Sequence record: SRR20825019_2407
Strand: one strand, 5' to 3'
Length of the DNA stretch: 64,000 bases
Both the position numbers and the translations under genes were made by a program. The notes beneath the pieces are model-generated. The model was given only the letters and a program-made list of their open reading frames with translations. It had not been told where the DNA came from and made no database searches. Shown one piece after another: positions 12,313 through 14,686 of this stretch. The stretch's first letter is position 1. Each line of letters begins with the position of its first letter.

Positions 12313-12975
12313 ATGAGTGCCCCCACCCTTAAAGATTACGACCCGCCAATGGTGCCGCTTGATATCATCTATGTTGATGATGATATCCTTGTGCTCAACA
12401 AGCCCGGTGGGCTTCTCTCCGTGCCCGGACGCACGCCGGAAAAACATGACTGTTTGGCAACCCGCGCGGAAGCCCAGTTTACCGGGGCGCGCATCGTGCA
12501 CCGGCTGGATATGGAGACATCCGGCGTTATCATCATGGCGCGGCATATGGATGCGCTCAGGCATCTTGGCCGCCAGTTTGAAGACCGCAAGACCGATAAG
12601 ATCTATGAAGCGCGGGTATACGGCCATGTAGTGCGCGATGAAGGGGAGATCGACCTGCCGCTTCTCATCGACTGGCCCAACAGACCCAAACACCGGGTGG
12701 ATTTTGAAAATGGCCGGTCTGCTTTCACGCGCTACAAGGTGCTGGAACGGGACGAGAAAACCACCCGCGTTGCCCTCTATCCTGTTACCGGCCGTTCCCA
12801 CCAGTTGAGGGTGCATATGCTCAGCCTTGGCCATGCCATTCTGGGTGACAACCTTTATGCGGAAGGGGAAGCCTTCACGCTTGCCGACCGGCTTCTGCTG
12901 CATGCCCGTGAGCTGACCGTGACGCACCCAGAGACGCTTGAATCGATGACTTTTACCGCACCAGTGCCATTTTAA
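12313..12975 (+). CDS. rluA: RluA family pseudouridine synthase
   Basis: NKPGGLLSVPG, VHRLDMETSG, TGRSHQLRVH, LLLHA. Confidence 0.93.
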   Translation: MSAPTLKDYDPPMVPLDIIYVDDDILVLNKPGGLLSVPGRTPEKHDCLATRAEAQFTGARIVHRLDMETSGVIIMARHMDALRHLGRQFEDRKTDKIYEARVYGHVVRDEGEIDLPLLIDWPNRPKHRVDFENGRSAFTRYKVLERDEKTTRVALYPVTGRSHQLRVHMLSLGHAILGDNLYAEGEAFTLADRLLLHARELTVTHPETLESMTFTAPVPF

Positions 12976-13061
12976 GGGACTGATCGGCCACGAGATTCAC
13001 GTTCAAAATTGGCCGAAAAACGCCACTTTGAAACCCGCATTCCCCTGCCCAAAAAAAAGTC

Positions 13062-13090
13062 TTGCAATGCGACTAAAAAAAGCGCAAATG
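13062..13090 (+). promoter_or_regulatory. Putative sigma70 promoter for the ornithine decarboxylase leader
   Basis: TTGCAA-17 bp-CAAATG, preceded by an A tract. Confidence 0.45.
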
Positions 13091-13096
13091 CCGCTC

Positions 13097-13507
13097 AGAC
13101 GTAAAAAGCGCACGTGCCACGACTCCCGGGCAACCCTGTCGTTCCCCACTGCAAGACATGGGAAAGACATCCGGTAGACACGTACGGGTAACGACGCAAA
13201 TCGTCCTTTGTTGATTGGGGTACGGCCAGGCCGCACCAAAGTTGATTGAAGGGGTTTGCCGGAATGATCCGCACGACAAAAATGGGCGCGCTTTCGCTAC
13301 TGTCTGCCTCCCACGAATTTGAAGCCAACCGGCAGTTCCTGCCGCGCGAGATGTTTGATTATTTCTCAAGCGTCATAGAGCTGACCTATATCACCGCGCA
13401 TCCTGCGTGATGCGCCAAACACCGGCCTATGCTGGTGGTCCTGTTCCGGCACCGACGAATGTTCTGGTGCCAGTTTCTGTCATCCTTTTTAGATAGGGAT
13501 CAGGTCG
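13097..13507 (+). ncRNA. Long structured 5' leader, candidate alphaproteobacterial speF leader
   Basis: About 410 nt without a long ORF upstream of a type III PLP ornithine decarboxylase. Several hairpins at 13396-13500. The context matches the known speF RNA motif, but no covariance search was run. Confidence 0.55.
13264..13410 (+). CDS. Putative leader peptide (uORF), 48 aa
   Basis: ATG13264..TGA13410 encodes MIRTTKMGALSLLSASHEFEANRQFLPREMFDYFSSVIELTYITAHPA, with GAAGGGG upstream. Below the ORF-track cutoff. Confidence 0.4.
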   Translation: MIRTTKMGALSLLSASHEFEANRQFLPREMFDYFSSVIELTYITAHPA

Positions 13508-14686
13508 ATGCAGGTTATTGAAGCTTTCCGCCCACTACCACAGAACCAAAACTGGGCGCTTGATGGACTAAAAACATACATGAGCGCAGAAGAAGCCATT
13601 GCCGGTGAGCAGTGCAACGATTCTGTGCATCTTTTTTACCCTGAAAAGCTGATGGAAACCGCGCGTCGGTTCCTCGCGGGTTTTCGGGGCACCAACCTTT
13701 ATGCGGTGAAAGCAAACCCGCATGAGGCAGTGCTCAAGCACCTGTGGCAAGCAGGCGTGCGTGATTTTGACGTGGCGTCGCTTCGTGAAGTTGAGCTGGT
13801 GGCCAAAACACTGCCGGGCGCGAACCTTTATTTCATGCACCCGGTTAAAAGCCGCCAGGCTATTCGCTATGCCTACGCTATGGGCGTGCGTGGTTTCTCT
13901 TTTGATAGCCTTGATGAGCTTGTGAAAATCGAGGAAGAAACCAGTGGTGCATCTGACCTCAAGCTGTTCCTGCGCCTTGGTGTGGTTGTCAAAGGTGCAG
14001 CTTATGAGCTGAGCGGCAAGTTTGGTGCGCCTCTTGATATCGCACCCCTCATCCTGCAGCGCGCGCGGATGTCGGCGCAGCGCCTGGGTGTTTGTTTCCA
14101 TGTCGGGTCTCAGTGCATGAATCCGCAGGCTTTTACGGATGCCATTTCGCAAGCGGCAACTGCCGTGAAAGCTGCCGGTGTGCATCTTGATGTGATCGAC
14201 GTTGGTGGTGGTTTCCCTGTGGCCTACCCCAGCATGGAGCCGCCTGCGCTTGAGGAATTTTTCACCGTGATCCACCAAGCACTCGACGCCAACGGCTTCG
14301 GTGGTACCGAGACCCTGTGCGAGCCCGGCCGTGCACTTGTGGCGGAAGCGGGTGCTGTCGCCGCGCGTGTTGAGCTGCGTAAAGGCGAAGACCTGTATCT
14401 GAACGACGGCACCTACGGTGCGCTGTTTGACGCAGGGGTGCCTGAGTGGCCCTTCCCGATCCGCCTTGTTGCGGCAGACGGTCGTGAAACCTCGCGCGAG
14501 ACCATTGGTTACCGCGCTTATGGTCCAACATGTGACAGCTGCGACAAGATGGCGGGCCCGTTTCCGCTGCCTGCTGATGTGCGTGAAAGCGACTGGGTGA
14601 TTTTTGAGCACCTCGGCGCATATGGCCATTCAATGCAAGCCCGCTTCAACGGCTTCTATTCCGAGACCATGGTCGCCATCGTTTAA
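13508..14686 (+). CDS. Ornithine/lysine decarboxylase (fold type III PLP enzyme)
   Basis: YAVKAN (PLP lysine), FDVAS, KFGA, FHVGSQC, DVGGGFP, EPGR, GPTCDSCD, GAY. Confidence 0.92.
   Translation: MQVIEAFRPLPQNQNWALDGLKTYMSAEEAIAGEQCNDSVHLFYPEKLMETARRFLAGFRGTNLYAVKANPHEAVLKHLWQAGVRDFDVASLREVELVAKTLPGANLYFMHPVKSRQAIRYAYAMGVRGFSFDSLDELVKIEEETSGASDLKLFLRLGVVVKGAAYELSGKFGAPLDIAPLILQRARMSAQRLGVCFHVGSQCMNPQAFTDAISQAATAVKAAGVHLDVIDVGGGFPVAYPSMEPPALEEFFTVIHQALDANGFGGTETLCEPGRALVAEAGAVAARVELRKGEDLYLNDGTYGALFDAGVPEWPFPIRLVAADGRETSRETIGYRAYGPTCDSCDKMAGPFPLPADVRESDWVIFEHLGAYGHSMQARFNGFYSETMVAIV

Follow-up and report, generated by a model that had tools for sequence, protein, structure and literature searches.

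Is the long leader of an alphaproteobacterial ornithine decarboxylase gene a control element made of RNA alone, or is part of it translated into a peptide that itself takes part in control? The question is raised by a locus in sequence record SRR20825019_2407, from the genus Kordiimonas, of which we analysed a stretch of 64,000 nt (hereafter the window; leader and gene positions are given in window numbering). Here, a leader of ~410 nt precedes a decarboxylase gene (13508-14686, plus strand) and contains an upstream open reading frame (uORF) of 48 codons. To our knowledge, control of ornithine decarboxylase by a leader peptide has been established only for SpeFL of gammaproteobacteria, and we know of no ligand reported for the speF RNA since 2005. 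This leader RNA of alphaproteobacteria yielded no ligand in the tests of 2005, as far as the accessible part of that report goes (PMC1273637). Leader-peptide control of the enzyme is known in kind; in Kordiimonas it would be joined to a speF/ar45-like RNA gate. We propose that polyamine synthesis is probably controlled here through the translation of a small peptide.

The uORF runs on the plus strand from an ATG at 13264 to a TGA at 13408-13410 and encodes MIRTTKMGALSLLSASHEFEANRQFLPREMFDYFSSVIELTYITAHPA, in which F25 to H46 form a conserved core. Its Shine-Dalgarno sequence, AAGGGG (13249-13254), lies 9 nt 5' of the ATG. An earlier, sequence-only reading of the same DNA had picked out this frame, a promoter-like site about 420 nt upstream of the gene and four stems, the first overlapping the uORF stop and the last covering the decarboxylase Shine-Dalgarno sequence; all of these are present where that reading placed them. 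The homologous leaders also hold what its argument depended on, namely a reading frame that is conserved, that changes in a coding pattern and that is tied to the decarboxylase in four genera.

The frame is open in all 18 related loci that carry the Kordiimonas type of peptide, whereas the +1 and +2 frames each contain stops in 17 of the 18. Its length is 47-48 codons in 11 of 12 loci of the same genus. The variable columns at first, second and third codon positions number 5/8/24 in the window and L003-L005, and 4/3/15 in L006-L009. The adjoining conserved non-coding RNA domain gives 13/10/15 and 3/5/3, without third-position periodicity. Close pairs have an omega (NG86) of 0.05-0.26, which is no clean measure here because synonymous sites of the uORF are constrained as well and the conservation is partly at the RNA level. 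In L002-L005, the peptide is 100%, 96%, 94% and 76% identical to the window copy, and the enzyme 95%, 81%, 82% and 82%. Between the same genome pairs, non-synonymous divergence (pN) is 0.048 in the uORF versus 0.124 in the enzyme, and 0.050 versus 0.117. We consider it very probable that the uORF is a translated gene under selection.

One copy is interrupted. In L012 (also L037; genome G005, 80% complete), an in-frame TAG stands at codon 33, the Tyr of the DYF motif, and homology resumes after it. An intact close relative of this copy exists (P0008), and the TAG may have arisen recently by nonsense mutation or may reflect faulty assembly. The window and L002 form the other extreme: over the 144 nt of the uORF (13264-13407) they show 0 substitutions, and their decarboxylase genes differ at 49% of synonymous sites.

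How widely does the peptide occur, and does it stay with the enzyme? Of the genomes sampled within the genus, 12 of 24 match a 601-nt stretch across the leader at the nucleotide level, as against 0 of 16 taken from the order's other genera. A six-frame search of 401 genomes of the order with the peptide profile (A3) gave 20 matches. One is to the genome of the window itself and 13 come from the 31 other genomes of the genus; both genomes of g168 match, as do one genome of g2 and two genomes of g192, and a weak match in G318 completes the count. Every matching genome holds a single match. In the same-genus sample, the 13 peptide-bearing genomes are exactly the 13 with the decarboxylase orthologue, and in all eight inspected loci (L033-L040) the frame lies directly 5' of that orthologue (51-63% identity). 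The peptide recurs 5' of decarboxylase orthologues in three genera besides Kordiimonas. The match in G318 (E 0.0059) was discarded, as it contains a TGA and has no decarboxylase at the locus, the orthologue being on another contig.

The distant copies have 35-51 codons and retain the core F-[LI]-[SP]-x3-[FY]-[DK]-Y-F-[SA]-x-[VI]-[LIM]-x-[LM]-x-[HY]-x2-A-[HR]. Sequence and length both vary ahead of the core, which is preceded by 11 to 27 residues. Within the core, YF-x10-A-[HR] keeps a fixed spacing, and 0-3 residues separate it from the stop. The profile finds this similarity where DNA similarity is not found, and the core persists across loci of strongly diverged DNA, including one AT-rich lineage. 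Beyond the order the peptide is rare. The profile matched none of 400 genomes in a six-frame search of the class, apart from the window's own. There were only 8 matches among 1.84 billion representative proteins and 17 among 5.8 billion clusters; they carry no Pfam domain and are named 'hypothetical protein'. A 14-residue match in an Elusimicrobiales metagenome-assembled genome, among 11 related loci returned, was set aside as chance. The ESM Atlas gave no usable match to the peptide. Term searches of the literature returned no paper describing this uORF, one of them being swamped by unrelated meanings of the terms. AlphaFold2 predicts a low-confidence helix-loop-helix (mean predicted local distance difference test score, pLDDT, 66; predicted template modelling score, pTM, 0.33), with a helix at residues 28-45 and a block pLDDT of up to 86.

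The end of the uORF is built into a hairpin. In hairpin 1, GCGCATC (13396-13402) pairs with GATGCGC (13409-13415), so that the Ala-His codons form the 5' arm, with the stop where the loop meets the 3' arm. Since the 5' arm is made of the last codons of the uORF, a ribosome decoding them must melt the hairpin. This arrangement is conserved: in 18 of 18 Kordiimonas-type loci, hairpin 1 begins exactly with the codon for the Ala of the terminal A-[HR], and 17 of 18 minimum-energy folds place the stop codon in the loop or at its junction with the 3' arm. By eye, pairing is kept across at least six different stem sequences. Folds around the uORF stop have a mean z of -2.5 over 24 loci, with 17 of the 24 below -1.5.

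Three further hairpins separate hairpin 1 from the gene. Hairpin 2 (CACCGGC/GCUGGUG, 13420-13437) starts 4 nt past hairpin 1, and its stems differ among relatives with the pairing kept (by eye). Hairpin 3 (GGCACC/GGUGCC, 13448-13471), identified by folding, is variable in sequence among relatives. In hairpin 4 (13482-13500), AUCCUU (13482-13487) pairs with AGGGAU (13495-13500) and covers the decarboxylase Shine-Dalgarno sequence; its arms vary and still pair, with AUCCU/AGGAU in some relatives and UUCCU/AGGAA in others (by eye). The whole array (13390-13512) folds at -47.5 kcal/mol with a z of -3.18, a value equalled by 0 of 200 shuffles.

What, then, lies between the promoter and the uORF? 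From the putative transcription start to the start of the uORF, the aligned leaders are highly conserved at the nucleotide level. This conserved 5' RNA domain (13096-13263, plus strand) consists of three blocks, GACGUAAAAAGCGCACGUGCC, GUACGGGUAACGACGCAAAUCGUCCUUUGUUGAUUGG and UUGAUUGAAGGGGUUUGCC in this order, with a variable hairpin after each of the first two. From an alignment of 23 leaders, which represent four families of the order, RNAalifold predicts two helices. Helix 1 pairs GCG/CGU (13108-13110, 13113-13115) with ACG/CGC (13191-13193, 13195-13197) and encloses the first variable hairpin. Every pair forms in all 22 distinct sequences, with changes on both sides at 2 of the 6 pairs. 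In helix 2, CCUUU (13205-13209) and UUGAUUGG (13211-13218) pair with UUGAUUGAAGGGG (13242-13254), a predicted pairing that sequesters the uORF Shine-Dalgarno sequence. Here, 93.9% of the alignment cells pair, and one pair changes from C-G to U-A (12 versus 10 sequences); helix 2 is also predicted from the single sequence. For both helices together, 95.9% of cells pair compared with 35-58% in slid controls, a generous comparison, as the structure was derived from the same sequences. Five helix pairs are changed on both sides, a count matched in 20 of 500 shuffles. The single-sequence fold of the domain shows no thermodynamic excess (z -0.20). Because CCUUU pairs with the Shine-Dalgarno sequence of the uORF, we propose that the domain gates uORF translation.

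Within this domain, positions 13192-13215 hold a small hairpin, GACG-CAAAU-CGUC, followed by CCUUUGUUGAUU; the equivalent in other families is a short hairpin and U5. The U-rich stretch could be a weak terminator tail giving a short, ar45-like RNA, or the strand that pairs with the uORF Shine-Dalgarno sequence.

A peptide that is conserved and always adjoins an enzyme gene could also be a free small protein that acts in trans, for example as an antizyme-like binder or modulator of the decarboxylase with which it would be co-transcribed, the hairpins being ordinary intercistronic structure. The purifying selection on the peptide fits this, the predicted C-terminal helix (28-45) could be a binding helix, and annotation by PGAP lists a 'hypothetical protein' in several Kordiimonas genomes. 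However, a free protein would not account for a Shine-Dalgarno sequence embedded in and paired with a conserved leader RNA, for a stop codon locked in a covarying hairpin, or for constrained synonymous sites; moreover, its N-terminal half is free in length and sequence and no confident fold is predicted. We regard this explanation as unlikely. A peptide that works in cis, on the leader from which it is translated, is the reading we favour, and we think it likely that the uORF is part of the cis control of the decarboxylase.

The domain also has to be placed against the RNA elements already described. Like the Rfam speF leader, it lies 5' of an alphaproteobacterial ornithine decarboxylase gene. 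The sequence-only reading had pointed to this motif, and here the outcome was negative: an Infernal search with the Rfam speF model (RF00518, gathering score 37 bits) gave no match in the window, in 12900-13650 at E<=10 or in the whole genome. The same search finds the motif in 6 of 151 genomes of the class, so it works. The ar45 model (RF02347, gathering score 40 bits) does not score on the leader either, and none of the Rfam models, ar45 included, matches any of 14 related loci at E<=1. Nothing in the window reaches an Rfam gathering score, and in 12900-13650 at E<=10 just two matches appear, to Cardiovirus CRE and Six3os1, both by chance.

Nevertheless, the domain and the ar45/speF loci have blocks in common, in the same order. 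CGCACGUGCC is followed by a variable hairpin, then by AACGACG and a stretch rich in U, and after another hairpin comes the purine-rich block GAAG(A/G)GG. In the genomes of the class that score as Rfam speF (n=6), the leader consists of ar45 directly followed by speF, as seen in L016 and L017. Corbino et al. described an extended speF element which, in the part of their report available to us, did not bind six compounds of the pathway and had 'further conserved blocks' before the start codon that were left unassigned (PMC1273637). In S. meliloti, the 5' part accumulates as Smr45C, an RNA that binds Hfq and in every case lies in synteny with the decarboxylase gene, according to the accessible text of del Val et al. 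(PMC3346310). As far as these sources go, the extended speF element (ar45 plus speF) resembles our leader in preceding an alphaproteobacterial decarboxylase of the same Pfam families and in being conserved from the putative transcription start. It differs in that the enzyme of canonical speF loci is just 32-37% identical to that of the window, and in that its Rfam models do not score the leader here.

A covariance model of the domain (R1), which scores 124 bits on 13079-13266, extends the comparison. On canonical speF loci it is weak, with 9-10 bits (E 0.16-0.37) in 3 of 6, at the position of ar45. It matches 17 of 150 other genomes of the class, all of different families and none among the six Rfam-speF genomes. 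Fourteen of these loci were inspected, and 11 have a decarboxylase homologue 150-340 nt 3' on the same strand. In 10 of the 11 decarboxylase leaders, an ATG led by a Shine-Dalgarno sequence lies 95-112 nt past CGCACGUGCC. This ATG opens the decarboxylase frame itself in 2 of the 10 loci (L098 and L105; 413 and 462 aa), with a long low-complexity N-terminal extension joining the gated start to the enzyme in L105. In the other 8 it opens a uORF of 16-55 codons, and these peptides are unlike one another by eye. The two fused loci hint that the main frame once included the uORFs, which then became separate, or that events ran the other way. On the printed strand of the canonical Rfam-speF loci (L016, L017, L020, L021), AUC or UUC stands at the spot of the start codon (by eye). 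The domain is thus a decarboxylase-leader RNA of wide occurrence, at whose end stands a putatively gated start codon, and the window holds the version whose gated frame is a conserved peptide.

Within the order, all 25 loci that carry the RNA block have a uORF, with a Shine-Dalgarno sequence and start codon at the homologous spot. It comprises 41-56 codons in 24 of the 25 and 32 in L012, where the TAG ends it. The peptide profile does not match the uORFs of f3, f4 and f6, three families in which position and length are the same and an aromatic core lies ~15 residues before the end. Homology between the peptide groups (A3 versus A6) is not shown, the hhalign probability being 0.1%, though the aligned register is as expected. 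The second group (f3/f4) has an omega of 0.15-0.47. Among the six leaders that score as Rfam speF, the peptide has no relative (best E 1.4), so the peptide mechanism cannot be extended to the alphaproteobacterial leader generally. The sequence-only idea that the alphaproteobacterial leader works through a distinct peptide is thus partly supported, by the conserved frame tied to the gene in the Kordiimonas group, and cannot be carried over to the Rfam-speF leaders.

These other-family leaders raise a second alternative, that the RNA domain is the sole sensor (of a ligand, a protein or Hfq) and the uORF its expression platform, with translation protecting the leader from Rho or remodelling it whatever the peptide, and with peptide conservation secondary to RNA constraint. 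A domain that ends in a Shine-Dalgarno sequence and ATG in 10 of 11 leaders, followed by the enzyme in two and by unlike uORFs in eight, is what this would predict; the strong synonymous constraint within the uORF agrees with it, and so does the Hfq-binding RNA made from the equivalent 5' region in S. meliloti, going by the accessible text (PMC3346310). Yet RNA constraint gives no third-position periodicity, and the adjoining RNA domain shows none; nor does it explain a peptide core that persists across strongly diverged DNA, the AT-rich lineage included, or the low omega of the second uORF group. We therefore hold an RNA-only sensor to be improbable. That the frame is not translated at all and is a by-product of the conserved leader RNA is hardly credible, as the low synonymous divergence that speaks for it is set against a frame open throughout the 18 loci in which the other frames are nearly always closed, periodic substitutions, a start site kept in 25 of 25 loci with the RNA block and peptide similarity detected where DNA similarity is undetectable.

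How might a cis-acting peptide and the RNA domain work together? We propose that the ~410-nt leader is a composite control region. Its 5' RNA domain, apparently block-level kin of ar45/speF, would pair CCUUU with the Shine-Dalgarno sequence of the leader open reading frame and so gate its translation. The open reading frame would then yield the 48-residue peptide, whose C-terminal 22 residues (F-L-P/S-x3-F/Y-D-Y-F-S-x-V-L/I-E/K-L-x-H/Y-x2-A-H/R) are under purifying selection and may act in cis, as a nascent chain within the ribosome. A ribosome reaching or pausing at the end of the frame would melt hairpin 1, of which one arm is the last conserved codons and the loop holds the stop. This melting would set the fate of the downstream leader, either as continued transcription or as translation of the decarboxylase. 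By analogy with speFL-speF, a response to ornithine or a polyamine is possible. The composite scheme as a whole, with an RNA domain gating the uORF, a nascent peptide acting in cis at the stop-holding hairpin and decarboxylase expression as the output, seems to us evenly poised between right and wrong, and a pause of the nascent peptide that is modulated by a ligand is a part of it that we lean slightly against.

Several observations weigh against this scheme. Synonymous divergence (pS) in the uORF is low too, at 0.00, 0.26 and 0.29 versus 0.49, 0.69 and 0.63 in the enzyme. This synonymous constraint is unusually strong, and since both pN and pS are low relative to the enzyme, the frame is constrained as a peptide and as RNA. 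In the sister pair L076/L079 (genus g171, same family), a frame of 48-56 codons has an omega of 0.97 and no third-position excess; the leader open reading frame may be decaying there or be of a non-peptide kind. The eight other-family leaders carry no conserved peptide in their gated frame, and there translation alone, without a conserved peptide, may suffice. The tail past A-[HR] varies between 0 and 3 residues and all three stop codons are used. Arrest peptides of the TnaC type, which are ligand-dependent and act at or near termination, have a tighter spacing of tail and stop. As the sequence-only reading had anticipated, the peptide does not resemble SpeFL: comparison of the profile A3 with E. 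coli SpeFL gives an hhalign probability of 0.2%.

Nor do the simplest models of the leader's output gain support. The idea that a ribosome at the uORF stop unmasks the decarboxylase Shine-Dalgarno sequence is not supported, as constrained folding of 12 leaders leaves it unpaired to the extent of 0.12-0.58 versus 0.11-0.63. From the uORF to the decarboxylase start, a scan reports no terminator-like site, and the leader contains no clearly C-rich, G-poor stretch for Rho (C/G 0.6-1.4). The public RNA data comprise two short metatranscriptome contigs of relatives, covering 13109-13297 (<90% alike) and 13306-13455, in which DNA carry-over is possible and which give no start, end or expression level. 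A search for RNA runs of this organism found none.

The closest functional parallel is SpeFL. Its enzyme is of another kind: the fold class of SpeF differs from that of the alanine-racemase-fold decarboxylases, and the decarboxylase here belongs to the latter group and not to the SpeF type. In the accessible part of the speFL report, a hairpin containing the 3' end of the leader open reading frame pauses RNA polymerase, a ribosome at the stop unwinds this hairpin and the stalled ribosome masks a Rho site; all three stop codons occur and the effector part is an aromatic core (10.1101/604074). To this extent, SpeFL/orf34 of speF-potE and our uORF are alike in being short leader frames 5' of an ornithine decarboxylase with a hairpin that takes in the frame's 3' end, and in having an aromatic-rich, conserved C-terminal part followed by any of the three stop codons. 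They differ in length (34 residues versus 48 here) and in sequence, as the HIRRXXH motif by which SpeFL recognises ornithine is absent from 15 of 15 aligned peptides. In contrast to speFL, the uORF Shine-Dalgarno sequence is here predicted to be gated by a conserved 5' RNA domain, and no rut-like region is seen.

TnaC-type arrest peptides share with the peptide a C-terminal segment of the nascent chain that is conserved and keeps a set distance to where the leader frame ends, and a stop region that would control downstream expression. Here, however, there is no shared motif and no evident Rho site, and the length of the tail is not strictly fixed. Attenuators of the trp/his type combine a run of codons for the regulating amino acid with alternative terminator and antiterminator hairpins; the uORF peptide has no such run, and no terminator-like site is reported between the uORF and the gene.

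A different conserved uORF precedes the orthologous gene in Sphingomonas. This is the odc1 motif (uORF-25-1) of Brewer et al., with a uORF of 11 residues (PMC8632094). From what the available text describes, odc1 consists of a short hairpin-pseudoknot, two UUG starts 2 nt apart and an 11-codon uORF that overlaps the main start (PMC8632094). It resembles our leader, as far as that text allows, in being a conserved-uORF control element ahead of an orthologous decarboxylase (46-51% identity among the matches listed), and it is also found in the same order. By eye, the odc1 arrangement is absent upstream of the window gene, which starts at the ATG at 13508. Twelve genomes of family f7 of the same order (L084-L095) have a short leader with the hairpin CUGCCCCAUGGGACUUCC...GCAAGGCAG, then GGAGGUCCC, then UUG-AA-UUG. 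An 11-codon frame, LNCTSIIARWG, overlaps the main start of the decarboxylase there and fits odc1 by eye, on the evidence of the accessible description (PMC8632094). From its sequence, the f7 leader element appears to be distinct from that of the window.

What would follow for the orphan speF and ar45 RNAs? The locus offers a concrete link, leading from a speF/ar45-like domain to a putatively gated Shine-Dalgarno sequence and start codon and, in one lineage, to a strongly conserved peptide with its stop in a covarying hairpin. Should the peptide indeed sense ornithine or a polyamine, this pathway would have a second nascent chain, independent of the first, that senses a metabolite, and the finding would suggest how the orphan RNA works. 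In the boldest form, which we find rather doubtful, the speF/ar45 'riboswitch candidate' would be the gate of a translated leader open reading frame and not a metabolite aptamer. The Kordiimonas-type sensor of ornithine or a polyamine would then be the ribosome together with a nascent arrest peptide of a new class, which has the core F-x6-[FY]-D-Y-F-x10-A-[HR] and stalls on the hairpin that holds its own stop codon.

The promoter-like site of the leader (13062-13090, plus strand) comprises a -35 hexamer TTGCAA (13062-13067), a 17-nt spacer and a -10 hexamer CAAATG (13085-13090), and ends 418 nt 5' of the decarboxylase ATG. A generic scan for sigma-70 promoters made no call at this site. All 12 aligned leaders of the genus have an unchanged TTGC in the -35 hexamer, the -10 region is conserved too, and a second leader alignment (A4) shows the same conservation. 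We infer that transcription starts a few bases 3' of the -10, where the conserved RNA begins.

The gene itself encodes a pyridoxal-phosphate decarboxylase of 392 aa in the ornithine/DAP/arginine group (Pfam PF02784 and PF00278). Among proteins of solved structure, human and mouse ornithine decarboxylase match it best (E 6e-40), and lysine/ornithine decarboxylases come next. It scores under all NCBIfam cut-offs, and its assignment, most likely as an ornithine (or lysine/ornithine) decarboxylase, is therefore a well-founded inference and not an equivalog call. On its 3' side the neighbouring gene lies on the opposite strand. The 5' neighbour is a pseudouridine synthase of the RluA type that ends at 12975. 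Beginning 9 nt past its stop is a 7-bp hairpin (UCGGCCA...UGGCCGA, 12984-13016), the place of the chance match to Cardiovirus CRE (18.6 bits, E 1.8), and this hairpin is followed by an A-run, not a U-run.

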